From positions 663,063 through 695,062 of the forward strand of contig CAZETV010000001.1 in the NCBI GenBank assembly GCA_964514965.1: a DNA stretch of 32,000 nt, read 5' to 3'. This DNA comes from Candidatus Hadarchaeota archaeon. GTDB lineage: Archaea > Hadarchaeota > Hadarchaeia > Hadarchaeales > Hadarchaeaceae. Of the stretch, positions 99 to 31,413 are shown in pieces; position 1 is the stretch's first letter, and each line of letters starts with the position of its first letter. The notes under the pieces were generated by a model. The model was not told the DNA's origin and searched no databases. It worked only from the letters and a program-made list of their open reading frames with translations. The position numbers and the translations under genes were made by a program.

Positions 99-113
99 TA
101 TAACGCCTTTATA
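99..113. promoter_or_regulatory. TATAAC-N3-GTTATA-type palindrome (TATAACgccTTTATA, 1 mismatch) overlapping a TATA-like box upstream of nifS
   Basis: The sequence is read directly. It lies 17-31 nt upstream of ATG 130. It is one of five similarly spaced copies in this window. Confidence 0.4.
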
Positions 114-3375: not shown

Positions 3376-3390
3376 TATAACGGCGTTATA
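3376..3390. promoter_or_regulatory. perfect TATAACggcGTTATA palindrome between tRNA-Cys and the CopA-like gene
   Basis: Read directly. It overlaps the TATA-like boxes that could serve both divergent transcription units. Confidence 0.45.
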
Positions 3391-7092: not shown

Positions 7093-7107
7093 AATAACGC
7101 TGTTATA
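7093..7107. promoter_or_regulatory. TATAAC-N3-GTTATA-type palindrome (aATAACgctGTTATA) in the thi4 / COG1900 divergent intergenic region
   Basis: Read directly, with 1 mismatch. Confidence 0.35.
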
Positions 7108-14290: not shown

Positions 14291-14310
14291 AAAAACTAGA
14301 AGAATATTCG

Positions 14311-14481
14311 ATGGTGAAAAATCCAGTCTGCGTCATGGACGTAGATGAGCGAAAAGCGGAGTTCAGGTAGAACTATCGTGGAAAGGTATACCCCTTCTGC
14401 TCGGTCGTGTGTATACGATGGTTCAGGAAGCGTCCGCAGAAGTACCTGAAGGGACAATCTAAAAAAGTGGACTACTTATGA
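14311..14481 (+). pseudogene. second YHS-domain gene interrupted by an in-frame TAG
   Basis: MVKNPVCVMDVDERKAEFR-TAG(14368-14370)-NYRGKVYPFCSVVCIRWFRKRPQKYLKG... is colinear with the neighbouring YHS protein. Confidence 0.6.
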
Positions 14482-14798
14482 AGAAGAACTAAACAATGCT
14501 CTGCTGTTTGGGACTTTTTGCAGATCTTTTCATCTGGCAATATCTGGGCGACCCATGGATAGTAATAGCCCCAGCCGTTGGATTCATCGTGAATTAGTTG
14601 AAGATGTGAAATTGTTCCAGAAAAAGCGTCCAGTCAAGAAGGGGGCTTGCCATGTCTGAGGTTTCCACTCGTGCTCGTGTTATTGTTCATAGCGGTATGG
14701 GCCCCCTGTTGCACAAGCGATGCCATATTCTCCCACCTATTCGCGAGAAGACCAAAACACATTAGAAGGACTTCCTAATACCCGCCGAAAGCCTTTTA

Positions 14799-14813
14799 TA
14801 TAACACTGTTATA
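14799..14813. promoter_or_regulatory. perfect TATAACactGTTATA palindrome overlapping the TTTTATATAA box upstream of the Met/Cys mini-ORF
   Basis: Read directly. Confidence 0.45.
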
Positions 14814-14827
14814 GAAAAACCGAAAGA

Positions 14828-14878
14828 ATGGTGATGATGATGAGGGATTTAGTTTGCCCGTGCTGTGTTTGCTGCTGA
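14828..14878 (+). CDS. 16-codon Met/Cys-rich mini-ORF (MVMMMRDLVCPCCVCC), candidate leader peptide or metal-binding micropeptide
   Basis: Hand translation. A TATA-like box is centred ~29 nt upstream and there is no SD, which fits leaderless geometry. It lies upstream of the sulfate-reduction operon. Confidence 0.35.
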   Translation: MVMMMRDLVCPCCVCC

Positions 14879-14973
14879 CTTAGTCACTACGCGGTTTTCA
14901 GCTGACCGTGTAAATTTGGTAATTTCAATCAATCACTTTTTATCTGTTATAGAACTAGTGAGGGGTCTGTCCG

Positions 14974-15750
14974 ATGCCCATTGAGACACTAGTCGCGATC
15001 GTGCTGGTCGGGGCCTTGGGCGGATATCTCGGCGGAATCGTGGGGGCGGGCATAGGAGCGACCGTAGTCCCTGGCCTAATTTTGCTCGGCATTGACCCCA
15101 TCATCGCGATTGGCTCAAGCTTGCTGCTACATGTGCTGATAGCTCCTCTTGGTGGGATCGCTCACTACAAATTTGGACACGTACGGCGAAGAATCTTAGT
15201 TCCATTGGTTCTAGCTGGGGTTCTGGGGGCCTTCTTCGGTGCCAACGCTTCCACACACCTACCTGCAGATGTGTTGAAGCTGCTCGTAGGCATCTCAGCC
15301 ATTGCTGCAGGCCTGCTAATCACAGTTAGATACCCTAGAACCAACCAGCGAAAGTTAACACTCCCCTCTGTCAAAAAAAGACTTCGGGTAGTCAGTACAC
15401 CCACGATAACAGCAATCGCCCTTATCGTGGGACTTTTATATGGGGCGTCGGGTGCAATGTGGGGCTCGATCGGTGTCCCTCTTTTAATTATAGTTGGAGT
15501 CACCCCTCACGTTGCGGTTGGTTCATCTCTGCTGGCACGATCCATCGTCGCCTTGGCCGGATCCTCAACCTACTACTTCCTGAACGGCATTCAAGCGGAC
15601 ATCATTCTATCGTTACTCGCTGGGGGGTCAATTGCTATTTTGCTCGGCGCACTCACCACAAAACGCCTTCCGTCCAGAAAGTTAAAACTAATCGTGGGCG
15701 TAGCTGTTATCGTGCTCGGCGCATCCGTCTTGGTGAAACAGATGATTTAA
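14974..15750 (+). CDS. TauE/SafE (DUF81) family anion permease, putative sulfate/sulfite transporter
   Basis: 258 aa and polytopic, with Gly-rich helices arranged in two similar halves, as is typical of DUF81. A GTGAGGGG SD lies upstream. Confidence 0.8.
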   Translation: MPIETLVAIVLVGALGGYLGGIVGAGIGATVVPGLILLGIDPIIAIGSSLLLHVLIAPLGGIAHYKFGHVRRRILVPLVLAGVLGAFFGANASTHLPADVLKLLVGISAIAAGLLITVRYPRTNQRKLTLPSVKKRLRVVSTPTITAIALIVGLLYGASGAMWGSIGVPLLIIVGVTPHVAVGSSLLARSIVALAGSSTYYFLNGIQADIILSLLAGGSIAILLGALTTKRLPSRKLKLIVGVAVIVLGASVLVKQMI

Positions 15751-17487
15751 ATGACACGACCAAAACGAAATACCGTAGAACAAAAACAAATCGATACAGA
15801 TATCTTGATAATCGGTGGTGGCACAGCTGGATGCATGGCTGCCGTCGAGGCGAAGTGGCTAGACCCGAAACTCAAAGTTGTCATCATGGAGAAGGCCCAC
15901 ATCGACCGAAGCGGCTGTTTAGCTGGGGGAATGAACGCCATCAACGTTTACCTCCACCCCGGGGAAACTCCCGAAAGCTTTACCCGCTATGTGCGATGGC
16001 AAGCGATGGGACTCTGTCGTGAGGACCTCACCATCAGCATGATCAAGGAGGTCAACTCAGCGGTCAAGCGCGTCGAGGAGTGGGGGCTTCCCATCCTAAA
16101 AGATGAAAATGGGAACTACTCACGGCGGGGTCGATGGAACGTCAGGATTAACGGGGAAGCTCTCAAACTGATCCTCGCCGAAGCTGTAAAGAAGTCGAAG
16201 GTTACCACACTTAACCATACTGTCGCAACCAATTTCATTCTCGATGAGAACCGCGTGGCTGGGGCATTCGGCTTTAGCATTCGTGACAAAAAATTTTACG
16301 TCGTTAAAGCAAATGCCACCATCGTCGCCACTGGCGGCGCCTCCGGTATCTACCGCCCGAACAACCGAAGCGATGCCCACCACACAATGTGGTACTGCCC
16401 CTTCAACACGGGAGCTGGATATGCGATGGGTATCCGCGGGGGAGCCGAAATGACTAGTTTTGAAATGCGGTTCATAGCACTTCGCGTGAAAAACATTATC
16501 GCCCCCACGGGCACGCTCGCCTTAGGCTTCGGCGCGCCACAAGTCAATGCGAGGAGTGAACAATATATGAAAACGCGCTATGCTCACCTTGGCGGCGAGG
16601 GCGCCCCGACACCAATCCGAGTTTACGCTCCGACCCAGGAGGCAAAGGAAGGGAGGGGACCGTGCTACCTAGACACTCGTCACCTCAGCCAGGAGCGAGT
16701 CAGAGAACTCAAAGCCAGCTATCTCGACATGTACCCTCAGATGACCCTCTATCTCGCGGCGAACCGCATCGATCCGAGCAAGCAACCAATCGAGATTGCC
16801 GGCACCGAACCCTATGTGGTGGGTGGGCACTGCCAAGCTGGTTACTGGGTGGACGAAAACAGAAAGACCACTCTCAAGGGTCTCTTTGCGGCTGGCGATA
16901 TCGTTGGAGGAGTGCCCTACAAGTTCGTTTCGGGTTGCTGGGCGGAGGGCATTATCGCCACCCGCGCAGCTGTAGAATTTACTAGAGCGAACAAGCACGG
17001 AAAAATCGGCACCACACAAGTCAAACGTGAAATGGAGCGGGTCTACGCCCCTCTCAGAGATAAAAAAGCCAGTGGGGGCGTGCGACCGAGGGAGTTGGAA
17101 GAGGAACTACAAAAGGTGATGGACGAGTACGCTGGAGGTATAAGCACATTTTACGAGATGGATAAGAAGCGCCTTCTAGTCGCACACAGGATGCTCCAAA
17201 AACTAAAGAAACAAACCAAAAACTTGATTGCCAAGAACTTACATGAGCTTATGCTTGCCCACGATGTAATCGACCGAATCGAAGTGGCGCAGGTGTTGGT
17301 GAAACACTTAATCTTTAGAATGGAAACTCGATGGCCAGGGTACCAAACGAGGCTCGACCACCCGAAGCTCGACGATGAGAACTGGCTATGCTTCGCCAAC
17401 AGCCGACGCGACCCGAAGACCGGGGAGATTAAGGTGTTCAAAGTTCCTTACAAACAAATCGTATCAGGAGATCGATATAAACCGTGA
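15751..17487 (+). CDS. aprA: adenylylsulfate (APS/PAPS) reductase alpha-subunit-like flavoprotein
   Basis: DILIIGGGTAGCMAAVEA is the FAD fold. EKA.I.RSG, FYVVKA.ATIVATGGA and AAGDIVGG are colinear with Archaeoglobus AprA as I recall it. The neighbours are a 2x[4Fe-4S] subunit and sat. Confidence 0.8.
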   Translation: MTRPKRNTVEQKQIDTDILIIGGGTAGCMAAVEAKWLDPKLKVVIMEKAHIDRSGCLAGGMNAINVYLHPGETPESFTRYVRWQAMGLCREDLTISMIKEVNSAVKRVEEWGLPILKDENGNYSRRGRWNVRINGEALKLILAEAVKKSKVTTLNHTVATNFILDENRVAGAFGFSIRDKKFYVVKANATIVATGGASGIYRPNNRSDAHHTMWYCPFNTGAGYAMGIRGGAEMTSFEMRFIALRVKNIIAPTGTLALGFGAPQVNARSEQYMKTRYAHLGGEGAPTPIRVYAPTQEAKEGRGPCYLDTRHLSQERVRELKASYLDMYPQMTLYLAANRIDPSKQPIEIAGTEPYVVGGHCQAGYWVDENRKTTLKGLFAAGDIVGGVPYKFVSGCWAEGIIATRAAVEFTRANKHGKIGTTQVKREMERVYAPLRDKKASGGVRPRELEEELQKVMDEYAGGISTFYEMDKKRLLVAHRMLQKLKKQTKNLIAKNLHELMLAHDVIDRIEVAQVLVKHLIFRMETRWPGYQTRLDHPKLDDENWLCFANSRRDPKTGEIKVFKVPYKQIVSGDRYKP

Positions 17488-17496
17488 GGTGTTTGA

Positions 17497-17814
17497 ATGG
17501 CTGTCTTGATCGACGAGAAAAAGTGCACGGGTTGCGGGATCTGCGTGGAGCTTTGCCCAGGCGACTTGCTGGCTCTAGAACCGAAGTCGAAAAAAGCTTT
17601 CATCTGGGACAACTCTGACTGCTGGAATTGCTTGGTCTGTGTCAAACACTGCCCCGTGGACGCCATCACTCTCAAGCTCCCAAAATCGATTGCCCCCTAC
17701 GACGCCACACTCACACCAGAAATGAGGAAAGATAAAACCGTGTGGACCTTGACCGATGCCAGCGGCGAAATGGAAAAGTTTGAGATAAAAAGGAAATCTG
17801 CAGGAGGTGCTTGA
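17497..17814 (+). CDS. aprB: APS reductase beta-subunit-like 2x[4Fe-4S] ferredoxin (short form)
   Basis: It carries CTGCGICVELCP and CWNCLVCVKHCP. It is 105 aa and sits directly between the aprA-like gene and sat. Confidence 0.7.
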   Translation: MAVLIDEKKCTGCGICVELCPGDLLALEPKSKKAFIWDNSDCWNCLVCVKHCPVDAITLKLPKSIAPYDATLTPEMRKDKTVWTLTDASGEMEKFEIKRKSAGGA

Positions 17815-18963
17815 ATGGAGCTTGTCAATAGGGTTTTGACCAGCCAGAAAAGGATGAAGGTGTTGGAGGAGCTGAAAGAATACCCGTCCGTGATAGCGAG
17901 CGCCGAAATGATCATGGACGCCGAACTCATCGCCACGGGTGGCTATACTCCAATCGAAGGGTTCCTTACAAATGAGGATTTCGAAAGTGTCCTTGAGCAC
18001 ATGCACCTAGTCAACGGCTCACCTTGGACCATTCCCATTGTTCTACCCGTCGATGAAAAAATAGCGGGCGGGCTCAAGGAAGGAGATGATGTAGTTCTAC
18101 TGGATAGTGCAAAAAATTCAATCGCCGTGCTTCACTTGAAGGAAAAATTCAAGTACGACAAAAAGCGCATGGTTCAGAAAATCTTCCGTACCGCCGATGA
18201 AAAACATCCTGGAGTTGCAGCGATTTACGGCTGGGGAGATTTCCTATTAGGTGGAGAAATTGATCTAGTCAACCGCCCAAAACATGTCTTCGAGCGATAC
18301 AACTTAGACCCTGCACAGACGAGGAAAGAGTTCAAGGAGAGGGGGTGGCGCACCGTTGTCGGATTCCAGACCCGCAACCCCATCCACCGCTCACACGAGT
18401 ACCTCCAGAAGTGTGCCCTTGAAGTCGTAGACGGGTTGTTCATCCATCCAATTGTTGGTTGGACGCGAAAGGGAGATGTGCCAGCTGAGGTGCGAATTGA
18501 AAGCTACGAGATAGTTTTGAACAACTACTATCCGCGCAACCGATTCCTGCTGGCGACGCTCTCGACTGCGATGAGGTACGCCGGGCCTAGGGAAGCGATT
18601 TTCCACGCGCTCGTACGGAAGAACTTCGGCTGCACTCACTTTATCGTCGGTCGCGACCACGCCGGGGTTGGGGATTATTACGACCCCTATGACGCTCAGC
18701 GAATCTTTTATGAATTCAAGGAAGGAGAACTCGGTATAACTCCAATGTTCTTTGAAAATGCATTTTTCTGCGTGTTGTGCGACGCGATGGCAACCAAGAA
18801 AACTTGTCCGCATCTGAAGAGCACACGAATAGCTCTCAGTGGCACGAAAGTGAGAGAACTCTTGCTTGAAGATAAACGAATCTCAGAAAAGGTAGTCCGC
18901 CCCGAAGTAGCAGAACTTTTGGCAGAGCATTATGCTATCGAGAAATCCAAAGGGGCGAGATAG
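17815..18963 (+). CDS. sat: sulfate adenylyltransferase (ATP sulfurylase)
   Basis: GFQTRNPIHRSHEYL and HFIVGRDHAGVG are the signature motifs. Confidence 0.92.
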   Translation: MELVNRVLTSQKRMKVLEELKEYPSVIASAEMIMDAELIATGGYTPIEGFLTNEDFESVLEHMHLVNGSPWTIPIVLPVDEKIAGGLKEGDDVVLLDSAKNSIAVLHLKEKFKYDKKRMVQKIFRTADEKHPGVAAIYGWGDFLLGGEIDLVNRPKHVFERYNLDPAQTRKEFKERGWRTVVGFQTRNPIHRSHEYLQKCALEVVDGLFIHPIVGWTRKGDVPAEVRIESYEIVLNNYYPRNRFLLATLSTAMRYAGPREAIFHALVRKNFGCTHFIVGRDHAGVGDYYDPYDAQRIFYEFKEGELGITPMFFENAFFCVLCDAMATKKTCPHLKSTRIALSGTKVRELLLEDKRISEKVVRPEVAELLAEHYAIEKSKGAR

Positions 18964-18964
18964 G

Positions 18965-19405
18965 ATGTACCTCCCGCTCCACATTAACCTGCGCGGGAAG
19001 AAAGTTTTGATCATCGGGTTGGGTAAGGTCGGGAAAAGGCGTGCTGAGAAATTGTTAAAAGCCGGCGCAAGCGTTACAGCCATTGATCGAAGGAAGGTGC
19101 GAGTCAAAAAAGGCGTGAGATTTATTCAAAAAAGTTTGCGGCGGAATGATATCCCATCCCTCAAAAAATATTTTCTTGTCGTGGCTTCCACCGATGATAA
19201 AAAATTGAACGCTGCTATCGCAAGAAACGCTAAACGAGAAGGTTGCTTAATTAACCGTGCTGACCTCTTTAAAAATGGGAATATACTCTTTCCAGCCGTT
19301 GTCAAAACGGGTGCGGGCATCATATCTTTCGCGACAATCGGAAGGAACCCGCGGCTGTCAAAGCAAATCAAGAAGGCGCTCAAACATGAGCTTCCCAAGA
19401 GCTAG
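18965..19405 (+). CDS. sirC: precorrin-2 dehydrogenase (SirC / CysG N-terminal type), short form
   Basis: LPLHINLRGKKVLIIGLGKVGKRRAEKLLKAGASVTAI is the NAD fold of siroheme synthase N-domains. ATG 18965 lies 1 nt after the sat stop. Confidence 0.7.
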   Translation: MYLPLHINLRGKKVLIIGLGKVGKRRAEKLLKAGASVTAIDRRKVRVKKGVRFIQKSLRRNDIPSLKKYFLVVASTDDKKLNAAIARNAKREGCLINRADLFKNGNILFPAVVKTGAGIISFATIGRNPRLSKQIKKALKHELPKS

Positions 19406-20381
19406 ACTGAGAAGATTAAGAAAAAGCGAAAAGATACGCGAGTTGGTAAGCGGGATTTCTCTCAACAAGCATGATTTTGTGTACCCAGTTTTCGTGAAGG
19501 AAGGATTGACTAGCAGAAGCGAGATACGCAGTATGCCCGGACAGTATCATCACTCACTGCGCGAATTGGGCAAATTCGCCGAGGAATGCGAAACCAATGG
19601 GGTGCTGGGAATGCTTATCTTCGGGACCCCAAGAAAAAAAGACATCTGCGGGAGCGGGGCGTACAATGTAAACGGGATTGCGCAAAGAGCCATCAAACGC
19701 GTGAAGGAAAAATCTGAACTCGTTGTCTTCACGGATGTTTGCCTCTGCCAGTACACGACGCACGGTCATTGCGGAGTGCTTACGAAACAGGGAATTGATA
19801 ACGATCGCACGCTCAGGCTCCTAGCCAAAACTGCTGTATCCCATGCTCGCGCTGGAGCAGATTTCGTCGCCCCTTCGAGCATGATGGATGGGCAAGTGAA
19901 GACAATTCGTGATGCCTTAGATGCAAGCGGGTTCAAGGATGTGGGGATAATGAGTTATTCCACCAAGTTCGCCAGCTCCTTTTATGGGCCATTTCGAGAA
20001 GTGGTTGAGAGCAACCCGAAGCGCGTGCAGGGTTTGCCCTACCTCGCTGACCGAAGCACTTATCAAATGGACTTCCGGTCGCTTGAGCAAGCGATGCGCG
20101 AAATTTCGCTCGACGTGGAAGAGGGCGCAGATATCACCATGATAAAACCCGCTTTGCCCTACCTCGATGTGATCTGTGAAGCTAAGCGAAGGTTCGACCT
20201 ACCGTTGGCCGCTTATCAGGTAAGTGGAGAGTATGCGATGATAAAGCTGGCGTGCTTGCGCGGACTGCTTGACGAAAGACGAGCCTTCCTCGAAACTCTG
20301 ACCTCGATCAAGCGAGCCGGCGCAAATTTTATCATAACTTATGCTGCACTTGACGCTGCTCGGTGGTTAAGTGAGAGTTAG
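19386..20381 (+). CDS. hemB: porphobilinogen synthase (ALA dehydratase), Zn-type
   Basis: The N-terminus is MSFPRARLRRLR. DVCLCQYTTHGHCG is the Cys-rich Zn site. ATG 19386 overlaps the sirC end. Confidence 0.9.
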   Translation: MSFPRARLRRLRKSEKIRELVSGISLNKHDFVYPVFVKEGLTSRSEIRSMPGQYHHSLRELGKFAEECETNGVLGMLIFGTPRKKDICGSGAYNVNGIAQRAIKRVKEKSELVVFTDVCLCQYTTHGHCGVLTKQGIDNDRTLRLLAKTAVSHARAGADFVAPSSMMDGQVKTIRDALDASGFKDVGIMSYSTKFASSFYGPFREVVESNPKRVQGLPYLADRSTYQMDFRSLEQAMREISLDVEEGADITMIKPALPYLDVICEAKRRFDLPLAAYQVSGEYAMIKLACLRGLLDERRAFLETLTSIKRAGANFIITYAALDAARWLSES

Positions 20382-21222
20382 GGTTGGCACGCGGGGTAGT
20401 AAGCTAGCAATTCTGCAGACCCGAAGAGTGATAGAAAAAATGAAAACTGTGATTCCCAACCTTAAGGAAGAAATTAAGATAATCAAAACCAGCAGAGATT
20501 TGCGGCGAATTAAGATCAATTCAGGAGTTTTCGTGAATGAGATAAATCGAGCGGTGCTTCGGGGAAAAATTGATATTGGTGTTCATAGCCTCAAAGACCT
20601 GCCAACAAGAGTACCCCAAGGTCTTTCACTTGCCTGTGTGCCCGAGCGGCTTGCCCCAAACGATGCCCTCATCTCGCGCGGTGGTACCGGCCTTTACAGC
20701 CTGCCTAATGGAGCGGTGCTTGGAACTTCAAGCCCCCGGAGGAAAGCTGAAATCATCCACCTTCGTCCCGACCTGAAGTTCAAGGACATCCACGGTAACA
20801 TCGACACCCGCATCCGAAAAATGGAGGAGGGATCCTATGATGGAATAATCGTCGCCCTCGCCGCTCTCCAGAGATGCGGTCTTCAGAAACTGGTGACTCA
20901 GCGCTTTGAACTAGACGAAATAGTACCCACGGCTGGCCAAGGAGCACTTGGGGTCGTTTGCAAACGAGACAGAGATTTTCTCGATAAAATATCGCAAATC
21001 AACGATGATGTAGCTTGGCGTGAAACGATGTGCGAGCGCACCTTCATGGAGAAACTAAGATTCGATTGCAAAACGCCTGCTGGAGCTGTTGCAAGGTTAA
21101 TGGATGGTGAAATCGAGCTGATAGTCGTTATTCATAAAAACGGCAGGCAATTGCTGAAGCTAAGAGGGCAAGACCCTAAAAATCTCGGAATAAAAGCAGC
21201 GAAGATGGTATCGAAGAGGTGA
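20371..21222 (+). CDS. hemC: hydroxymethylbilane synthase (porphobilinogen deaminase)
   Basis: The N-terminus is RVGTRGSKLAILQT, with HSLKDLPT further in. The GTG start overlaps the hemB end. Confidence 0.9.
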   Translation: MRVRVGTRGSKLAILQTRRVIEKMKTVIPNLKEEIKIIKTSRDLRRIKINSGVFVNEINRAVLRGKIDIGVHSLKDLPTRVPQGLSLACVPERLAPNDALISRGGTGLYSLPNGAVLGTSSPRRKAEIIHLRPDLKFKDIHGNIDTRIRKMEEGSYDGIIVALAALQRCGLQKLVTQRFELDEIVPTAGQGALGVVCKRDRDFLDKISQINDDVAWRETMCERTFMEKLRFDCKTPAGAVARLMDGEIELIVVIHKNGRQLLKLRGQDPKNLGIKAAKMVSKR

Positions 21223-21241
21223 TATAATACATAACATCCGC

Positions 21242-22330
21242 TTGACCCATAAGGAAGTTGGTGTCGAAAAGATCCCTGAAGCGGGGCGTGCCATCAGAAA
21301 TTTTGTCGTCACTCAGTCCATCGGCGATTATGTTGTTATACAAACTTGCAACCGAGCAGAGTTGTACTATCTTGATAGCACTTCTCAATCGCCTGATGGT
21401 TTCGTGTTCGAAAGCGGAACCGAGGCATTTCGACACCTTTTACGAGTAGCATGTGGTTTGGAATCGTTTGTCATAGGAGAAACGGAAATCCTAAATCAAA
21501 TCAAAAAGGCTTTCGTGCTCGCCAGAAAAGAAAAGCATTGTTCAAGGAAACTTGCGAAGTATTTTATGAATGCAATTAAAGTCGGGAGAAAAGCCAGAAA
21601 ACTTACAAAAATAAGTGTTGGTAAAGTGAGCACAGTCTCACTCGCACTTGAGTATGTCCAAGACTTGCTCGGCGATTTAACAAGAAAAAAATTTTTGGTG
21701 GTTGGAGCAGGCGAAACAGGCACAAAAGTTGCAAGGGCCCTCAAAAACATGAACGTTAAAAAAATGTTAATATCAAATCGTAACTATTACAAGGCTTTAA
21801 GATTATCTCGAGAAATAGCTGGTTCGGCCTATCATCTCTCGCGATTGAAAGACCTACTCAGAAAAGTGGATGTGGTCTTCTGTGCAACGAGTGCACCCCA
21901 CCCAATACTTACTAAAAATAAAATTGAAGTGGCTAAACAAGAAATTATACTTGTAGACCTTTCAGTTCCACGAAATGTTGAAGAATCGATACGAGAGCTT
22001 GAAAATGTTAAACTAATTTCCTTTCGAGACCTTACCGAGAAATCTAACAGAAATATGAGTGAACGGAGAAAAGAAATTAGAAAAGTTGAGGAAATCATAG
22101 ACTCTGAGCTCGCTAATAGAGATAATTTACGTGAACTTTACATTCACGCCGAACGAATAAGGAAAAAAGAGGTGAAAAAAGCTTTGCGTTTATTGACTAC
22201 CAAAGATTCCGAAGAAGTTATCGAGGGGCTGAGCAAATCCCTCGTCAAAAAGTTGTATTACCCTTTGAGAAAACGTGCCACGAAAATTGAAATTACCACA
22301 AGAACTGCTGGAAAAACGCGAAAAAAGTGA
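21242..22330 (+). CDS. hemA: glutamyl-tRNA reductase
   Basis: IQTCNRAELYY contains the catalytic Cys motif. VVGAGETGTKVARAL is the NADPH fold. It has a TTG start and a short N-terminus, and it is AT-rich. Confidence 0.85.
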   Translation: MTHKEVGVEKIPEAGRAIRNFVVTQSIGDYVVIQTCNRAELYYLDSTSQSPDGFVFESGTEAFRHLLRVACGLESFVIGETEILNQIKKAFVLARKEKHCSRKLAKYFMNAIKVGRKARKLTKISVGKVSTVSLALEYVQDLLGDLTRKKFLVVGAGETGTKVARALKNMNVKKMLISNRNYYKALRLSREIAGSAYHLSRLKDLLRKVDVVFCATSAPHPILTKNKIEVAKQEIILVDLSVPRNVEESIRELENVKLISFRDLTEKSNRNMSERRKEIRKVEEIIDSELANRDNLRELYIHAERIRKKEVKKALRLLTTKDSEEVIEGLSKSLVKKLYYPLRKRATKIEITTRTAGKTRKK

Positions 22331-23748
22331 AAAATATGGAAAAGAAAAAATTTGGTAAAGTGTATCTAGTTGGCTGTGGTCCAAGTAGTCCGGACCTTCT
22401 AACTCTTCGCGCCATTAAAATTCTGAAGAAAGCCGACGTAGTCTTTTATGACCGCCTCATAGACTCGACTGTTTTAAAATATGCTAGGAGAGCGAGGAAG
22501 GTGTATAGTGGAAAACACGGTGGTGAAGCGTGGAAACAGATTTATTTAAATAAACGCCTTTATCGAGAGGCTAAAAAGGGGAAAGTTGTTGTACGTCTTA
22601 AAAACGGCGACCCTTTTATTTTCGGTCGAGGGGGTGAGGAACTCCAGTATCTCCAGGGACGTGGCATCGAGGTAGAAGTCGTTCCCGGGCTTTCCTCAGC
22701 TCTCGTGTTGCCGGGAATTGCAAAAATTCCGTTAACCAAGCGAGATGTGTCTTCAAGCCTGACCATCGTGAGCGGTCGTGGGGCGGGCGGTAGGAAACCA
22801 CGCTGGAGCGGATTAGGCAACACGGTAGTCGTATTGATGCCCCTTGAGAATTTGGGCTGGATAATCCGTAGGCTTCTCTCAGGAGGCAAAAATAGGATGA
22901 AACCTTGCGCGCTGATAAGCAGTGGGACGATGACAGAAGAACGAATATTTGTATCAACTCTAGACAAAATTGCTGACGCTGCGGAGCGCCTTAGGTTCAA
23001 ACCGCCAGCAGTTTTTGTTGCTGGAGAGGTCGTTGGCGCCCTGCTCGACTTCAGAGGGCGACGTGTAGCAGCTTTCAGAGCGAGCAACGAGATAAAGCGG
23101 ACCGAGAGACTGATTAAACGCACCGGTGGCGCCCCTAACGTCTTCGAGATATGTGATATCAATCCGGCCGATGGTACTCTAAAGCGGGCTAGTAAGCAGA
23201 AATGGGAGGCGCTTGTCTTCATGAGCACCAATGGGGTTCGATCGGGAGCAAAGTTCTTTGACTTAAAAACATGCGTAACCATCGCAGTCGGTAATAGGAC
23301 GAAACGGGAACTCGAGCGCTTCGGTTGCAAGTCCATTATTGTTCCAAGAAAACAGAATGTGAAAAGTGTGGAAAAACTCTTGAAAGAGCAAAAGTGGCGT
23401 ACGGTTCTAGCCCTCAGATCTCCGTTGGCTAAGGGCAAGCTTGCGAGCGCCGTCAATATCCCTGCTTACCATATCAAGTTCAAAAACCTTACCCGAACCG
23501 TAAACAGTTATATCAAAACAAAGGATGATTTCACCCTCCTGACGAGTGCTGGACTGCTCGAGCACTTACTGAAAGCGGCGGACAAACTCGGGCTCAGGCA
23601 GGACTTCGTGCGAAAAATGAATCGAACCTTTGTCATTTCGCTAGGCGAAAACATAACCAAATGCGCGTTGGGGAATGGCATCAAGGTAAACCACGAGCCC
23701 GAACATCCGACCCTTGATTCGCTCTTCAGAAGAGGTGGAATTAGATGA
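22327..23748 (+). CDS. cobA: uroporphyrinogen-III C-methyltransferase fused to uroporphyrinogen-III synthase (CobA-HemD)
   Basis: VYLVGCGPSSPDLLTLRAIKILKKADVVFYDRL is the SUMT N-terminus. A ~230-aa C-terminal extension has HemD-like length and position. The GTG start overlaps the hemA stop. Confidence 0.8.
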   Translation: MKNMEKKKFGKVYLVGCGPSSPDLLTLRAIKILKKADVVFYDRLIDSTVLKYARRARKVYSGKHGGEAWKQIYLNKRLYREAKKGKVVVRLKNGDPFIFGRGGEELQYLQGRGIEVEVVPGLSSALVLPGIAKIPLTKRDVSSSLTIVSGRGAGGRKPRWSGLGNTVVVLMPLENLGWIIRRLLSGGKNRMKPCALISSGTMTEERIFVSTLDKIADAAERLRFKPPAVFVAGEVVGALLDFRGRRVAAFRASNEIKRTERLIKRTGGAPNVFEICDINPADGTLKRASKQKWEALVFMSTNGVRSGAKFFDLKTCVTIAVGNRTKRELERFGCKSIIVPRKQNVKSVEKLLKEQKWRTVLALRSPLAKGKLASAVNIPAYHIKFKNLTRTVNSYIKTKDDFTLLTSAGLLEHLLKAADKLGLRQDFVRKMNRTFVISLGENITKCALGNGIKVNHEPEHPTLDSLFRRGGIR

Positions 23749-25001
23749 GGTCTCGCTCGCGTCGGCTTTACGAGAGGGCGAAGCGTTTGCTGCCGGGAGG
23801 TGTTGACAGCCCTGTGCGTACATTCGAGCCTCATCCATTCTTCATCGAGCGGGGCGAGGGTTCAAAAATTCGTGATGTCGATGGCAACGAGTATGTGGAT
23901 TATTGCTTAGCCTATGGCCCCCTGATTCTTGGGCATCAACCACCAAGTGTGATGAAGGCAGTCAAGAAGCAAATTCAGAGAGGGATCCTCTTCGGCATCC
24001 CGAGCGAGCTTGAACTTGAGCTAGCAGAAAAAATTACTAAACACGTTCCATGCGCGGATATGGTGCGATTCGTAAACTCTGGAACCGAGGCGACGACGAG
24101 CGTCGTGAGGCTAGCGCGGGCCTACACCAACCGGGAAAATATACTCATCTTCGACGGCTGCTATCACGGGGCTAACGACCACTTTCTATTTGGAAAAAAG
24201 GGGCCGAAGAGCCCAGGTATCCCACACATGCTCAGGCGGAACACCCTTGTGGCCTCGTTTAACGACCTCACGAGTGTTGAAAAAATCGCGAGAAAAAACG
24301 AGCTCGCGGCAATTATTGTTGAACCGGTGATGGGTAACCTAGGGTGCATCCAACCAGCGGAGGGTTTCCTGAAGGGGCTACGGGAGATTTGCGATGAGCA
24401 CGGGGCGCTGTTGATATTCGACGAGGTGATTACCGGCTTCAGGCTGGCTCTCGGTGGTGCCCAAGAGTTTTTCAACGTTGTACCTGAACTCGCTACCTTA
24501 GGAAAAATCATTGGAGGAGGCTTCCCAATCGGTGCATTTGTTGGTAATGCTGAAATTATGGAGCTGGTAGCACCTGCTGGCAAGGTTTACCATGCTGGAA
24601 CTTTCTGCGGACACCCGGTCGCCATGGCTGCCGGGTTAGCCACCATTAAAACGCTAGAGAGGAAGAAAGCGATCGAGCGAGCGTGTAACTTTGCCCGCAA
24701 GTTGGCAGATACCTTAAGGCGCGAGCTCGAGCTACCCGTGAATCAAGTTGCGTCGATGTTTCAAGTGTTCTTCACTGAAGGAAATGTCAGCTCAGCCGAT
24801 GACGCTAGGAAGTGCGATAAAGAGGCGTTTATGCGATTTCACTGCGCTTTGCTAAAAAATGGTGTCTTCGCCACGCCCTCGCAGTTCGAGTGCTGGTTTA
24901 CCTCTGCCGCGCATACGAAAGATGATTTCGAAATTACGAAAAAAGCGATAACCATTGCTTCTAACGAAATTTTTAAAACAATGAACTCAAAATGTGGGTG
25001 A
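23745..25001 (+). CDS. hemL: glutamate-1-semialdehyde 2,1-aminomutase
   Basis: It carries LLPGGVDSPVR, NSGTEAT and FDEVITGFR. The ATGA start overlaps the upstream gene. Confidence 0.92.
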   Translation: MRSRSRRLYERAKRLLPGGVDSPVRTFEPHPFFIERGEGSKIRDVDGNEYVDYCLAYGPLILGHQPPSVMKAVKKQIQRGILFGIPSELELELAEKITKHVPCADMVRFVNSGTEATTSVVRLARAYTNRENILIFDGCYHGANDHFLFGKKGPKSPGIPHMLRRNTLVASFNDLTSVEKIARKNELAAIIVEPVMGNLGCIQPAEGFLKGLREICDEHGALLIFDEVITGFRLALGGAQEFFNVVPELATLGKIIGGGFPIGAFVGNAEIMELVAPAGKVYHAGTFCGHPVAMAAGLATIKTLERKKAIERACNFARKLADTLRRELELPVNQVASMFQVFFTEGNVSSADDARKCDKEAFMRFHCALLKNGVFATPSQFECWFTSAAHTKDDFEITKKAITIASNEIFKTMNSKCG

Positions 25002-25006
25002 TTTGA

Positions 25007-26506
25007 ATGAAGCACACGTTAGAAATCCCAACCGACGATATCATGCGATTCACGGACAAGTACTCACTGGGAAGGGACAAGGGAATGGGCTCCCGGCACT
25101 TCCTGAGAATAAAAGTGCTCGCGGGCACGCTGACCTCTGAACAGCTTCGTGAGATTGCGCAGATGGCGGACGACTACAGCAAGGGCTATGCTGAGATAAC
25201 TGACCGCCAAGACATTCAACTGCACTGGGTCCAAGGAAAGGACGCGCCGGAAGTCTTCACTCGGCTTGAAAAGCTCGGTTTCACCACAGACAAATGTGGC
25301 CAAGCTTTTCCTGGCGCACGTTATGGTGATGTGCGGAATGTCGTCGTTTGTCCGATTACTGGTGTAAACAAAAACGAACTCATTGATGTCTCACCTCTCG
25401 CCACGCAAATAAACGAGTTTTTCCTAGGTAACCGGAACTTCCTTGACATGCCAAAGAAATTCAAGATTTCTATCACGGGCTGCGAGCTTTGCTGCACTAA
25501 GCCAGAAATTCAAGATTTAGGTCTGTTCGCGGTAAAGCACGAAGGCAAGATCGGATTTGCGGCTCTCGTGGGCGGGTCGGTCGGCTCGACGCAGCCAGGA
25601 CCAAGGCTCGCGAAGCCGCTGGGCGTTTTCATCAAGCCCGACGAAGTTTTAGAAGTGGCAAAAACGCTGGCGGAGATTCACCGTGACTACAGCAACCGTG
25701 AAAGCAAGACCAAAGCGCGGTTCAAGTGGATTGTCGACAGCTGGGGCGTAGAACGAGTGAGGGAGAAACTAGAGGAGAAACTTGGGAAGAAGCTTGAGCG
25801 ATATGAGCTCAAACCAAAGATTAGTGGCGAGGAGCATATTGGTGTGCAAAGACAGAAAGACGACCACTATTTTATCAATATCCCACTAATCGGGGGAATC
25901 CTCTCGAGCGAGTTAATACGAAAGGTAGCTAATATTGCCAGCAAATTCGGGAGTAGTGAATTAAGACTCACTCCCTTCCAAAACTTAATTCTAATCAACA
26001 TTCACAAGAAGAAGGTCGACGAGGCTTTAAAGCAGCTTGAGGGAACGGGCCTGCCAGTGAAGGGCACACCACTTCGCTGGACGACCATTGGCTGCGCCGC
26101 AGATTTCTGCGGGAAGTCAATCGAGCCCTACCCGAAACAGATGGCGAAGGAAATAGTTGATTACTTGGAGAACCGCTTCGGTGTTACGCTAAACGATTTG
26201 AAGCTAAAGTTGCTCGTAACTGGCTGTCCTAACGACTGTGGCTTGCGTGCAATAGGGAACATTGGATTGCTCGGTGTGCAGGTAAAGAAGAACGAGAGTA
26301 AAGAATTTTATAACATTTACTTAGGCGGCACCTTGGGCGCAAACGCGTCGCTCTCTGAACTCGTGGAGAAAATGCTAAAGCCAGAGCAGGTAAAAACAAT
26401 GATTGAGAAGCTCGTCGTGGGGTGCCTGAAGGAAGGATTCAAAGACTTTGGGGAGTTCTGCCGCGCTCATAAGCTGGAAGAGCTGAAATTGATTGCGACC
26501 GAATAA
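25007..26506 (+). CDS. sir: siroheme/[4Fe-4S] sulfite (nitrite/sulfite) reductase, monomeric two-repeat type
   Basis: The C-terminal half carries GCAADFCGKS...TGCPNDCGLRA (cluster/siroheme Cys ligands). The N-terminal half carries a related ITGCELCC. The context is sat, aprAB and siroheme genes. Confidence 0.8.
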   Translation: MKHTLEIPTDDIMRFTDKYSLGRDKGMGSRHFLRIKVLAGTLTSEQLREIAQMADDYSKGYAEITDRQDIQLHWVQGKDAPEVFTRLEKLGFTTDKCGQAFPGARYGDVRNVVVCPITGVNKNELIDVSPLATQINEFFLGNRNFLDMPKKFKISITGCELCCTKPEIQDLGLFAVKHEGKIGFAALVGGSVGSTQPGPRLAKPLGVFIKPDEVLEVAKTLAEIHRDYSNRESKTKARFKWIVDSWGVERVREKLEEKLGKKLERYELKPKISGEEHIGVQRQKDDHYFINIPLIGGILSSELIRKVANIASKFGSSELRLTPFQNLILINIHKKKVDEALKQLEGTGLPVKGTPLRWTTIGCAADFCGKSIEPYPKQMAKEIVDYLENRFGVTLNDLKLKLLVTGCPNDCGLRAIGNIGLLGVQVKKNESKEFYNIYLGGTLGANASLSELVEKMLKPEQVKTMIEKLVVGCLKEGFKDFGEFCRAHKLEELKLIATE

Positions 26507-26515
26507 GGTGATGGA

Positions 26516-26776
26516 GTGGCTGAAAAAGTTGGTTTAAAACCTGCCGGGAAGGGGCACTACACGATGGACGCTCGAGGATATACTTGCCCCTACCCTGAGC
26601 TCTTCGCGCGGAGAGCCTTAGAAAAACTTGCGTCAGGTGATGTGTTTGAATTCATTATCGACAACATGCCCTCCTGCGAGACGGTTCCAGCCGCTGCCAA
26701 GGAGCTAGGACACAAGGTATTAGAAGTCATGAAAATCGATGACACCAGTTGGAAAATCATCATCAAAAAAAGTTGA
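26516..26776 (+). CDS. tusA: TusA/SirA-family sulfurtransferase
   Basis: MDARGYTCPYPELFARRALEKL contains the CPxP active-site motif. Confidence 0.8.
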   Translation: MAEKVGLKPAGKGHYTMDARGYTCPYPELFARRALEKLASGDVFEFIIDNMPSCETVPAAAKELGHKVLEVMKIDDTSWKIIIKKS

Positions 26777-26783
26777 GTTTTAG

Positions 26784-27143
26784 GGAAACTTCTGTGGCCA
26801 CCCGATCACCATGACCGCCGAACTGGCTACCATCGACACCTTCGAGAGAGCTAATGTTATCAAGCAAACAACTTAGCAAGGCAACGAAAATTCTTAAGCG
26901 CGAGCTCAAACTCTCCGTGAACCAATTGCATCAATGTTTCAGGTATTCCTCACCGAGAGAGAAGCCGGGTCGGCCGATGATGGCAAAAGCGTTCATGCCC
27001 TCCACCGCGCCTTGTTAAAGAGCGGAGTCTTCATCGCGCCCTCGCAGCTCGAGTGCTGGTTTACCTCTGCTGAACACGATAACAATGACCTCAAAATCAT
27101 CCTGCTAGCCATAACAAATGCGGCTGGAGAAATTTCAAAATGA
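26784..27143 (+). pseudogene. remnant of a second hemL 3' end (frameshifted, with stops)
   Basis: GNFCGHPITMTAELATI..., then KQLSKATKILKRELKLSVNQ, then MFQVFLTE...GVFIAPSQLECWFTSAEH in three different frames. These are colinear with residues GTFCGHPVAM...SQFECWFTSAAH of the intact hemL (24597-25001). Confidence 0.8.
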
Positions 27144-27247
27144 TAAAACGGTCCCCCAGCTCAGCCAGACCACGCGAAAAATAACCACCCAAAAATAGCT
27201 AGATAGATTCATGAAGTTAATTTTCCCATTTTTCCTGACGATTTAGA

Positions 27248-27268
27248 GGCGTTCTACGCCGTTTTTTT
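27248..27268 (+). terminator. GC hairpin (GGCGT-tct-ACGCC) followed by a T7 tract
   Basis: Read directly. It is the first strong oligo-T signal after the long plus-strand operon. It also abuts the 3' end of the convergent MFS pseudogene. Confidence 0.35.
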
Positions 27269-27269
27269 C

Positions 27270-28430
27270 CTATCGCATAAGCGCGGCCAACAGGGCGAAC
27301 ACGGCGACCGCGAATCCCGCACCCACGTAAAACGTCACGTCAAGCCCACCAGCGACGAAGACCAGCCCCATCAGCATGGGACCCAAGGTCTGCCCCAGCC
27401 GCAAGACCGTTCCGTTTATCGACATGAACGCCGCGCGGTGCCTCATGGGTGCCAATCCAGTCAAAGAGGTCTGGAGACTAGGTATGTTCAAGCCGTGGGC
27501 GACCCCAAATATCATTGTGGGCACTAACAAAACTGCTAGGTTGGGGCAAAGGGTATCATTACCAATGCCAGGATGTACAAAGCGAAGGCGGTCTTGAGAA
27601 GCGTCTTCCACGAGTATGTTTTCGCTAACCTCCACAGCTGCGATGCTGTCACCGCTGTGGAGAAGGACATGCTCGTCATTATCAAACCTATCACGAGCGC
27701 GGGAGCTCCAAACGAATTCCTAATCAAAAACGGGAAATATGTCAAGTAGGAGCCGTAGAGAATGATGAAAGTTATGGCGCCAGCTGTGAAGAGCGCGAAC
27801 GCCTGACGGTTCCTCATACTATGCCATACCCCCACCAGATACAACCTGAGCGGTTGGGTGTTCTTCGGCTCGGGATTTTTCAAAAAAAAGCAAGACAATG
27901 AATCCGATTGGGATGGCGACGAGAGAAAGGAGGAAAGGGTAGTACCACCCCAACATCGCGAGCGCCCCTCCAAGAGCCGGATAGCTCGCCGTCCCTACGC
28001 TCAGCACGCTTGCATTGTATCCCATGGCGGTCGCGCGCTCCCTTCCCGAGTAAAGGTCACCGATGAGTGTGATATTAAGTGAAGCGAGGGATGCGGCACC
28101 TATTCCTTGAAAGAAACTGAGGGCTAGCAGAATGTTGAAATCTCGTGCGAACGTACATGTGCCTCCAGCTATACCGAAGAGCATCAGCGATGGGATGAGA
28201 ACCGTCTTCCTTCCCCATCGGTCAGCTAGTATACCCAAAATCGGCGTGAGTAGTACTCCAGGGAAGGTAAAAATCGTGATGAGCAACCCTACATCCTGTG
28301 TCGGGATATTCAGTTCCTGTGCCACCATCGGGAAAGCAAGGGTAATGCTAGCGACACCCAGGACGGCCATCAGGGTGATGCTGAATATGATTAGGAGGTT
28401 CGTTTCCCGGTAAAGTTTTCTTTCGCTCAT
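27270..28430 (-). pseudogene. MFS transporter split into three frames
   Basis: ORFs 27819..28430, 27536..27973 and 27270..27635 together read as one 12-TM MFS protein (ILADRWGRK motif). One frame change is at the A8/T8 run (27882-27889) and the other is near the G4 run at about 27544. Confidence 0.8.
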
Positions 28431-28476
28431 AAACTCTCACTCGACCAAATGAAATTTCGATGCTACAAATTTAGGT

Positions 28477-28725
28477 CTATTGCAACACCGCTACGTAATC
28501 CCCGAGAGCTACCCGTTTTTCCACCACTTTCCTCACGATTGGGAACGTCACCAACACAATCGACAACCCAACGAGAAATCCAAAAACAACTCCTCAACCA
28601 TTTTTGTAAAAAGTCAGGGGGGAACCAACGTGTATGTACGTGGGTATTAATGACACTAAAAATGCCATCGACACAAACATGAGAAACGCTGTTAAAACTG
28701 TCGCGTGTTTTTTACAGATTTTCAT
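28477..28725 (-). pseudogene. small two-TM membrane protein ORF interrupted by an in-frame TGA
   Basis: MKICKKHATVLTAFLMFVSMAFLVSLIPTYIHVGSPLTFYKNG-TGA(28594-28596)-GVVFGFLVGLSIVLVTFPIVRKVVEKRVALGDYVAVLQ. A GGGGTGAGG SD lies upstream. It could instead be a genuine 43-aa protein. Confidence 0.35.
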
Positions 28726-31337: not shown

Positions 31338-31413
31338 TAACTCACCTTTGAAAAACATTCACAGGTTATAACCCTAAATAACCTTCTTTATAAATTGGGA
31401 GTAGTTGGTTAAT

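Follow-up and report, generated by a model that had tools for sequence, protein, structure and literature searches.

The stretch of DNA analysed here, referred to as the window (32,000 nucleotides (nt), G000:C1:663063-695062), is part of the 1.28 Mb genome of a Candidatus Hadarchaeota archaeon, which is available as three contigs and is 94.5% complete. Positions 14974-26776 of the window are filled by 12 open reading frames (ORFs), all on the + strand, which form a candidate operon for the conversion of sulfate to sulfide together with a pathway to sirohydrochlorin, the precursor of siroheme. Each of the twelve families named in an earlier, sequence-only reading of this DNA was matched by profile or structure comparison, and the products are, in order:

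14974..15750, + strand: TauE/SafE (DUF81) anion permease (PF01925, 130 bits)
15751..17487, + strand: alpha subunit, binding flavin adenine dinucleotide (FAD), of an AprAB-like assimilatory reductase for adenosine 5'-phosphosulfate (APS)/3'-phosphoadenosine 5'-phosphosulfate (PAPS), of the M. thermolithotrophicus (Mt) PAPS reductase (MtPAPSR) type (NF005331, 775 bits, cut-off 557)
17497..17814, + strand: beta subunit of the same enzyme, two [4Fe-4S] clusters, 105 amino acids (aa), without the C-terminal tail of dissimilatory AprB
17815..18963, + strand: ATP sulfurylase Sat, without an APS-kinase domain (PUA_2 and ATP-sulfurylase; NF003166, 537 bits, cut-off 387)
18965..19405 (alternative start 18932), + strand: short SirC-like precorrin-2 dehydrogenase, 146 aa (NAD_binding_7; TIGR01470, 74 bits)
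19386..20381, + strand: HemB, porphobilinogen synthase (PF00490, 449 bits; NF006762, 454 bits)
20371..21222, + strand: HemC, hydroxymethylbilane synthase (TIGR00212, 285 bits)
21242..22330, + strand: HemA, glutamyl-tRNA reductase, intact (TIGR01035, 280 bits, cut-off 209)
22327..23748, + strand: CobA-HemD fusion, uroporphyrinogen-III synthase and SUMT (TP_methylase at residues 11-215, HEM4 at 259-467; NF004790, 238 bits)
23745..25001, + strand: HemL, glutamate-1-semialdehyde aminomutase (TIGR00713, 538 bits, cut-off 527)
25007..26506, + strand: Sir, monomeric siroheme/[4Fe-4S] sulfite reductase of the NirA/Sir type (two NIR_SIR_ferr and two NIR_SIR domains)
26516..26776, + strand: TusA-family sulfur carrier (PF01206, 71 bits; CPYP active-site motif)

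The intergenic distances range from -20 to +19 nt, and the coordinates and spacing agree with the earlier description of twelve co-directional genes with no gap larger than 19 nt. Two pairs, TauE/AprA and AprB/Sat, abut exactly (0 nt), and gaps are found between AprA and AprB (9 nt), HemC and HemA (19 nt), HemL and Sir (5 nt) and Sir and TusA (9 nt). SirC overlaps HemB (ATG at 19386) by 20 nt, HemB overlaps HemC by 11 nt, and overlaps of 4 nt join HemA to CobA-HemD and CobA-HemD to HemL. The distance between Sat and SirC is +1 nt if SirC starts at the ATG at 18965, which gives the 146-aa product, or -32 nt if it starts at the ATG at 18932. Four of the five overlaps reported in the sequence-only reading are therefore certain, and the fifth exists only with the SirC start at 18932. 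The gene order is kept in five related metagenome-assembled genomes (MAGs) and in metagenome contigs, and the nearest relatives of the AprA-like protein (75-88% identity) are from Hadarchaeota/Hadesarchaea MAGs. Promoter and ribosome-binding features in the window are likewise of the archaeal type. No run of six or more T residues is present inside the operon, between the promoter described below and position 27262, and the first such run, located 3' of a hemL remnant, is a candidate end of the transcript. A box resembling a transcription factor B recognition element (BRE) and TATA sequence was seen ahead of sir.

27248..27268, + strand: hairpin then T7
24961-24978 (~24970): BRE/TATA-like box CGAAATTTTTAAAA within the hemL 3' end, ~30 nt ahead of the start of Sir

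A scan for sigma-70 promoters and intrinsic terminators was uninformative for an archaeon, giving counts at or below shuffle expectation.

The tetrapyrrole genes in the operon are the only such set in this genome. A search for a second hem/siroheme set found none, hemA, hemB, hemC and cobA-hemD each being single-copy (tblastn), and the only other TP_methylase is the diphthine synthase Dph5 (284 bits). As the genome includes no AhbA/B genes for heme, no Cfb genes for coenzyme F430 and no B12 genes, Sir, which is also its only NIR_SIR protein, is the one identifiable client of the pathway. The distribution of these genes was examined in 66 Hadarchaeota species genomes, of which related ones are not independent samples. 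The operon TauE is found in six of the 66. HemB is present in the same six, in G064 and as a fragment in G048, and is thus missing from 58 of the 60 genomes without the operon, and NIR_SIR is found in five of the six operon genomes and nowhere else. In G064, hemB belongs to a separate hemA-hemB-hemL cluster with CbiX on the same contig. Though the genomes are related, this phyletic pattern supports a dedicated cofactor sub-module, for which it is the distribution predicted. The HemA sequence, which has its catalytic Cys within the motif TCNR, aligns to PDB 1GPJ, and CobA-HemD fusions are already known from a few archaea.

The sulfur genes encode an enzyme set of assimilatory type. The alpha subunit of the reductase has its best PDB match in chain A of 8A8O, the M. 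thermolithotrophicus PAPS reductase (671 bits, compared with 417 bits for A. fulgidus AprA, 2FJA_A), and fails the dissimilatory aprA model TIGR02061 (480 bits, cut-off 642). Similarly, the beta subunit, with eight Cys visible in the alignment as CxxCxxCxxxC twice, is closest to the beta subunit of 8A8O (8A8O_C, 104 aa, 87 bits) and fails the dissimilatory model TIGR02060 (66 bits, cut-off 136). By these matches, the reductase is of the MtPAPSR-type class and does not have the characters of the dissimilatory AprAB/Dsr class; the label 'AprAB-like' given previously was correct as to family and is narrowed accordingly. Sir has its best PDB match in M. tuberculosis NirA (1ZJ8) and carries the cluster motifs CAADFC and CPNDC (C363-x4-C368 and C407-x3-C411). 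In a Nitrospirota cluster (L017:12170-14536), a homologue of Sir is fused at its C-terminus to TusA (788 aa) and is encoded between AprAB and Sat, behind a Rrf2-family regulator. This fusion supports direct hand-over from Sir to TusA. TauE/SafE is a candidate importer of sulfate (or sulfite), its direction and substrate being suggested by its position; SulP was not found in the genome, and PiT-family genes occur in genomes both with and without the operon.

No APS kinase was found. The own-genome match to PF01583 is only the adenylate kinase beside secY, and the five other operon genomes gave only P-loop matches of 20-23 bits. CysH is missing from the genome as well, PAPS_reduct giving only weak matches (~21-23 bits). 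A P-loop protein of 212-220 aa in the relatives was considered as a hidden APS kinase and rejected, as it belongs to no Pfam family and has no homologue in this genome. Given that an APS kinase is lacking in all six operon genomes, APS is the likely substrate of the reductase.

A second step without an assigned enzyme is the insertion of iron into sirohydrochlorin. Like CysG(B), Met8p and SirC (PMC7018833; PDB 1PJQ, 3DFZ), the SirC-like protein has a Rossmann NAD domain and a dimerisation segment, and its NRADLFK and GRNPRL segments align to CysG D104, the Asp of bifunctional enzymes, and P133; in B. megaterium SirC, this Asp is replaced by Ser. Unlike these proteins, it has DLFK in place of the DAPK loop, and it stops before the helical domain. 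The alignment covers CysG residues 3-149 as well as B. megaterium SirC, and since all Hadarchaeota copies are 143-146 aa long and end at the equivalent of CysG residue 149, they lack the helical domain, which makes up one half of the cleft for the tetrapyrrole and binds it together with the Rossmann fold. Neither the C-terminal helical domain nor the loop of the bifunctional enzymes is thus present. The genome has no match to the class II chelatase families PF01903 (CbiX/SirB), PF06180 (CbiK) and PF00762 (HemH), and CbiX (PF01903) is encoded in none of the six operon genomes, being found in G064 only. The earlier statement that the window contains neither an APS kinase nor a chelatase therefore applies to the whole genome and, for CbiX, to all operon genomes. 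Extra genes after hemL in metagenome contig L141 were considered as candidate chelatases, but these are thioredoxin/CcdA-like and have no homologue here. Metagenome contig L139 encodes a SirC 84% identical to that in the window in an F430 gene cluster that includes the dedicated nickel chelatase CfbA, which argues against a strong built-in ferrochelatase activity of SirC. Iron could be inserted by a bifunctional short SirC or by an unrecognised enzyme, each of which is given roughly one third of the weight, and the rest falls to non-enzymatic or Sir-assisted metalation.

The operon lies in a block of DNA that is absent from a genome of the same genus, and the remains of a second hemL follow directly after tusA.

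14291..28515 (no strand assigned): 14.2 kb block absent from the same-genus genome, comprising a YHS pseudogene, leader, operon, hemL remnant and broken genes of the major facilitator superfamily (MFS)
26757..27143, + strand: decayed hemL 3' remnant directly after tusA, 45% identical to HemL residues 276-411, with stops and frame breaks

In G022 (same genus, 90% complete), the sequence ~70 nt after the YHS stop codon is joined directly to the homologue of window position 28516 onward. Other members of the genus have CopA-YHS beside the HcyBio cluster, and the flanks of the operon differ between genera. Within the operon, AprA, AprB and Sat are closest to those of L004 (83-88% identity), SirC through CobA-HemD are closest to those of L139 (81-88%, versus 60-82% to L004), and Sir and TusA are closest to those of L141 (75-80%, versus 63-66% to L004). 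These relationships indicate a mosaic operon built from three modules, namely TauE-AprAB-Sat, the sirohydrochlorin cassette and Sir-TusA. The hemL remnant, with L004 hemL as its closest DNA match (73%), marks a past rearrangement or reshuffling of modules. Hence, the proposal of a portable module made in the sequence-only reading is backed by the empty site in G022, the genus-specific flanks and the different nearest relatives of the three parts. The operon flanks within this block are decaying, with an in-frame stop in the second YHS gene (14313-14481) and pieces of an MFS transporter in several frames (27270-28430).

Other arrangements of the modules were found in metagenome contigs. L141 includes all twelve genes, but Sir-TusA is placed between hemA and cobA-hemD. 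L143 has the hem cassette followed by a YeiH-family transporter, Sir and TusA, with no Sat or AprAB; in this sulfite-only version of the module (L143:14260-17699), a leader with a poly-Cys upstream ORF (uORF; peptide MRDGLCECC) precedes transporter-Sir-TusA, and the hem cassette, located upstream, has another leader. In L139 (2272-14195), the genes after the hem cassette are a second, truncated hemA-like gene and cfbA, cfbE, cfbD, cfbC and cfbB. The hemA gene of the window is of foreign composition (GC 0.397 and GC at third codon positions 0.358, compared with ~0.50 and ~0.55 in its neighbours), has a TTG start with no Shine-Dalgarno sequence (SD), and has its closest relative in hemA of the L139 cassette (82-83% identity), all of which fits a re-acquisition of the cassette by recombination. 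Low GC (~0.40, with ~0.50 around it) spans window positions 21242-22626, comprising hemA and the first ~300 nt of cobA-hemD.

An 880-nt gap precedes the operon and contains a YHS gene, the YHS pseudogene and the leader, in which the following features were identified.

14786..14802, + strand: putative archaeal promoter, BRE-like CGAAAGCC then TATA box TTTATATA (14795-14802)
14799..14813 (no strand assigned): palindromic putative operator TATAACacTGTTATA (TATAAC-N3-GTTATA), overlapping the TATA box
14830..14878, + strand: SD GGTGATG (14830-14836) and uORF from ATG 14840 to TGA 14878, predicted peptide MRDLVCPCCVCC
14879..14973, + strand: leader spacer, with a small conserved hairpin (~14893-14911), a T5 run (14937-14941) and a predicted second hairpin that encloses the SD and AUG of TauE

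All related Hadarchaeota loci have the promoter block conserved in their leaders, and the palindrome is conserved in the operon leaders of L004, L005, L041, L141 and L143. An Rfam scan returned tRNA-Cys only, and thus no known riboswitch is present in the 880-nt gap. With up to one mismatch allowed, the palindrome occurs six times in the 1.28 Mb genome, each copy being in the window (99-113, 2457-2471, 3376-3390, 7093-7107 and 14799-14813) or 2 nt beyond it (G000:C1:695064). The copies precede nifS-iscU, a gene for a 129-aa winged helix-turn-helix (wHTH) protein, tRNA-Cys and a copA-like gene then thiI, thi4 and HcyBio, this operon, and the next cluster downstream. Their restriction to this island points to the operator of a dedicated regulon, and the 129-aa wHTH protein is a candidate regulator of the island. 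This protein (2471-2860, + strand) shows weak similarity to a wHTH of ArsR/BigR type and ends in a CxxC...C...CxxC tail, with the palindrome in front of its gene. An ArsR-like gene after hemL in L006/L007 was considered as its counterpart but is unrelated.

The island encodes SepCysS (30144-31358, - strand, 572 bits), HcyBio, NifS/IscU, ThiI and Thi4. As SepCysS is present, and neither CysRS nor CysK/M was found in the whole genome, cysteine seems to be made only on tRNA, and the decoding of Cys codons would depend directly on the delivery of sulfur to SepCysS. This makes a poly-Cys uORF a plausible sensor of sulfur supply.

The uORF is short, Cys-codon-rich (5 Cys in 12 codons) and conserved in relatives, and it has its own start signals, the SD being 4 nt upstream of the ATG; it thus has the features of a leader peptide gene. 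The SD and the sequence ATGAGGGAT(T/G)TA(G/C)TTTGC are nearly invariant across eight related leaders. Peptides predicted in relatives include MRDLLCGCCDCC, MRDLVCCGCRAC, MRDGLCECC, MRDVVCCCRCC(R/W)C and two degenerate forms, the shared pattern being MRD(L/V)xC and then two to six Cys. With the in-frame ATG at 14828, the peptide would be MVMMMRDLVCPCCVCC, but a leaderless uORF from this position was rejected, as the conserved SD GGTG(A/G)TG and the peptides of relatives favour ATG 14840. A pattern scan of metagenomes for the uORF recovered one further locus, L097, which is near-identical to L004. The region upstream of the F430-linked hem cassette in L139 has a different palindrome, GTTTCATATGAAAC, and no poly-Cys uORF. 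As L143 has the leader before transporter-Sir-TusA and L139 is without it, the uORF follows the sulfur genes and not the hem cassette. Only seven Cys-rich small ORFs (sORFs) were found genome-wide; MCSRKCSCSWCCKSY and LKCCLECCRAHHGICDDKCEHCCGS, at G000:C1:713330-713377 (- strand) and C1:706245-706322 (- strand), lie 11-18 kb beyond the window.

Taken together, the locus is probably an assimilatory sulfate-to-sulfide operon with a built-in and sole tetrapyrrole pathway, which forms part of a mosaic 14 kb insertion/deletion unit and is controlled by promoter, operator and uORF. In this pathway, TauE would import sulfate and Sat, a strong family assignment, would form APS. The AprAB-like flavo-iron-sulfur enzyme would then reduce activated sulfate to sulfite, with APS most likely used directly. 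Monomeric Sir would convert sulfite to sulfide, and TusA may hand the sulfur to SepCysS and to the synthesis of homocysteine, Fe-S clusters and thiamine encoded around the operon. HemA, HemL, HemB, HemC, HemD-CobA and the short SirC would lead from Glu-tRNA to sirohydrochlorin, solely for the siroheme of Sir. Expression would most likely be driven from one promoter, the palindrome overlapping its TATA box being a putative repressor site, and tuned by the poly-Cys uORF via Cys-tRNA(Cys), made only by SepRS/SepCysS. A more specific proposal is put forward only tentatively, at somewhat below even weight: that the uORF is a ribosome-mediated sensor of Cys-tRNA(Cys), fed through SepCysS by the sulfur of the operon, and that siroheme is completed without a known class of chelatase, by the truncated SirC or an undescribed enzyme.

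Several observations weigh against this reading or parts of it. It is gene spacing alone that suggests a single transcript, and the BRE/TATA-like box near 24970 could be an internal promoter for Sir-TusA. HemA was not detected in G017, G029, G030 and G031, and a two-piece remnant is found at the same site in G037; hemL stays conserved in these five relatives. Cofactor autonomy, as claimed for the module in the sequence-only reading, is therefore seen in this genome, L141 and L143 only and not in the five related operon genomes, in which hemA is missing or degraded. No ferrochelatase could be identified for the completion of siroheme. In the leader, RNAalifold with four sequences predicted 41 pairs, of which three show compensatory changes, and the model, which pairs the start region of the uORF with the segment just before the T5 run, is weakly supported; the single-sequence fold is not more stable than shuffles (z = -0.16). 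Sir scores below every equivalog cut-off, and its best NCBIfam matches are 'nitrite reductase' models; its assignment to sulfite is suggested by context, namely Sat, AprAB, TusA and the Sir::TusA fusion in L017. The substrate of the AprAB-like enzyme is open to similar doubt, since the M. thermolithotrophicus enzyme, its closest characterised relative, shows a ~16-fold preference for PAPS (0.114 U/mg with PAPS and 0.007 U/mg with APS; Jespersen & Wagner 2023, PMC10322725).

The last of these points is one ground for an alternative in which the layout is the same but the reductase uses PAPS, a non-canonical and unrecognised APS kinase, with a 3'-phosphoadenosine 5'-phosphate (PAP) phosphatase, being encoded elsewhere. 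Both subunits are closest to 8A8O, and the specificity of that enzyme has been ascribed to loop 104-123 and to the loss of Gln145 of true APS reductases (PMC10322725). The aligned loop reads REGQWQ in A. fulgidus, ARGKRS in the M. thermolithotrophicus enzyme, KGKRS in Brocadiales, and RRGRWN in the window as well as in all Hadarchaeota and in Nitrospirota. The window loop thus has the E-to-R change in common with MtPAPSR, carries positive residues, and has Asn in place of the Gln that would clash with the 3'-phosphate, which keeps PAPS a live rival substrate. However, it retains the Trp of true APS reductases (RGRWN, compared with RGKRS in the M. thermolithotrophicus and Brocadiales enzymes), and as aligned it is intermediate between the APS- and PAPS-reductase forms. 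Against a hidden kinase, the PF01583 matches are accounted for as described above, and Sat also adjoins AprAB with no recognisable kinase gene in clusters of Nitrospirota, Hydrothermarchaeales and metagenome Hadarchaeota. More generally, the AprAB-like 'PAPS reductase' type occurs in Hadarchaeota, Hydrothermarchaeales, Nitrospirota, Brocadiales and Firmicutes, usually beside Sat and without an APS kinase, which calls the substrate assignment of the whole class into question. Use of PAPS at this locus is considered unlikely, and direct reduction of APS is preferred.

Two further explanations would change the function of the genes themselves. AprAB and Sat run in reverse in sulfur oxidisers, and TauE/SafE proteins are described as sulfite exporters in the Pfam name, so that the cluster might oxidise sulfite, with TauE exporting, or serve in sulfite detoxification or respiration. 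This is the least probable of the alternatives. The homologous M. thermolithotrophicus enzyme could not be run in reverse (PMC10322725); no Dsr, Qmo or Hdr partners were noted, no search having been aimed at Qmo, and the sole NIR_SIR protein is of the monomeric assimilatory type. The position of the operon in an island of sulfur-consuming biosynthetic genes with a common putative operator, and a uORF rich in Cys codons, also suit the control of supply and not energy metabolism. Only marginally less improbable is a general housekeeping role of the hem genes in tetrapyrrole synthesis, their place beside the sulfur genes being incidental and Sir perhaps a nitrite reductase. The nitrite-reductase matches of Sir would agree with this, as would PMC10811742, which describes Hadarchaeota as possible nitrite reducers. 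However, no other tetrapyrrole-using pathway or second client was found in the genome, HemB is lacking in nearly all genomes without the operon, and the hem cassette of L143 lies beside Sir-TusA even though Sat and Apr are absent. The Nitrospirota Sir, fused to TusA, is encoded next to AprAB and Sat, and the protein that Sir of the window matches best in the PDB, M. tuberculosis NirA, reduces sulfite. A sulfate assimilation operon that includes the supply of its own cofactor precursor therefore remains the preferred explanation.

No description of this operon was found in papers mentioning Hadarchaeota. What is new is the combination: the cell's only tetrapyrrole pathway, with its full C5 trunk, placed in an operon, a reductase of MtPAPSR type with no accompanying APS kinase, and the lack of a chelatase, together with the sharing of a cassette with F430 synthesis and an archaeal poly-Cys leader. 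This ~12 kb set of genes, which was assembled and transferred in nature, would be expected to confer the ability to assimilate sulfate and to supply the cofactor as well. It is also a clean case of a missing sirohydrochlorin ferrochelatase, with six genomes and one client enzyme.

The assimilatory pathway of M. thermolithotrophicus is similar in that an archaeon combines Sat with an AprAB-like heteromeric flavo-FeS reductase for assimilation, the beta subunits being about the same length. It differs in requiring a PAP phosphatase and an APS kinase, the latter of which is absent here. That pathway ends in the F420-dependent Fsr, whereas a NirA/Sir-type siroheme enzyme is encoded here, in one operon with the cofactor pathway, a permease and TusA. 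In Nitrospirota and relatives, AprA-AprB-Sir::TusA-Sat clusters combine Sat and TusA with a NirA-type Sir and with AprAB of the type found here (61-66% identity). Unlike the operon in the window, these are bacterial, with an Rrf2 regulator upstream, fused Sir-TusA and no hem genes, and a full-length (~210 aa) SirC/CysG-N homologue is located elsewhere.

Operons that join sulfur and siroheme genes are known in bacteria. The B. subtilis cysH operon carries the siroheme-branch genes ylnD/E/F. YlnD and YlnF are named in PMC1266029, as is the C. glutamicum fpr2-cysIXHDNYZ cluster, in which growth on sulfate requires the membrane permease CysZ, and CysY is a SirB-like chelatase. In those operons, genes for part of the siroheme synthesis are transcribed together with genes for transport, activation and reduction; here, genes for these functions are grouped by order. 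However, the bacterial operons include only the late branch (methyltransferase, dehydrogenase and chelatase), and their hemA-L trunk is encoded elsewhere and also serves heme. In the Hadarchaeota operon, the whole C5 trunk is inside and is the only copy in the genome, and the chelatase is the one missing step.

The cfbABCDE clusters for F430 resemble the operon in that L139 has a SirC-HemB-HemC-HemA-CobA/HemD-HemL cassette, 81-88% identical to that in the window, which would feed sirohydrochlorin to CfbA-E. The window differs from these in having no cfb genes; its cassette would serve Sir, includes no chelatase and lies behind a sulfur-type leader that is absent in L139. Because sirohydrochlorin is the common precursor of siroheme and F430, one cassette can serve two cofactors in the phylum, some Hadarchaeota using it for siroheme and others for F430.

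The poly-Cys uORF is a candidate for leader-peptide control in an archaeon, linked to the tRNA-dependent synthesis of cysteine. If this is true, it would be the first leader peptide reported from Archaea to sense an amino acid or sulfur. The polycysteine sORFs of mycobacteria exert a Cys-responsive, translation-dependent control (Canestrari et al. 2020, 10.1101/834739) and are likewise short upstream ORFs with consecutive Cys codons, located before sulfur/cysteine genes and conserved among relatives. The mycobacterial sORFs are leaderless, whereas the uORF in the window, known from its sequence alone, is from an archaeal host and has its own SD and an MRD(L/V)xC head, and the Cys-tRNA that it would sense comes from SepRS/SepCysS rather than CysRS.

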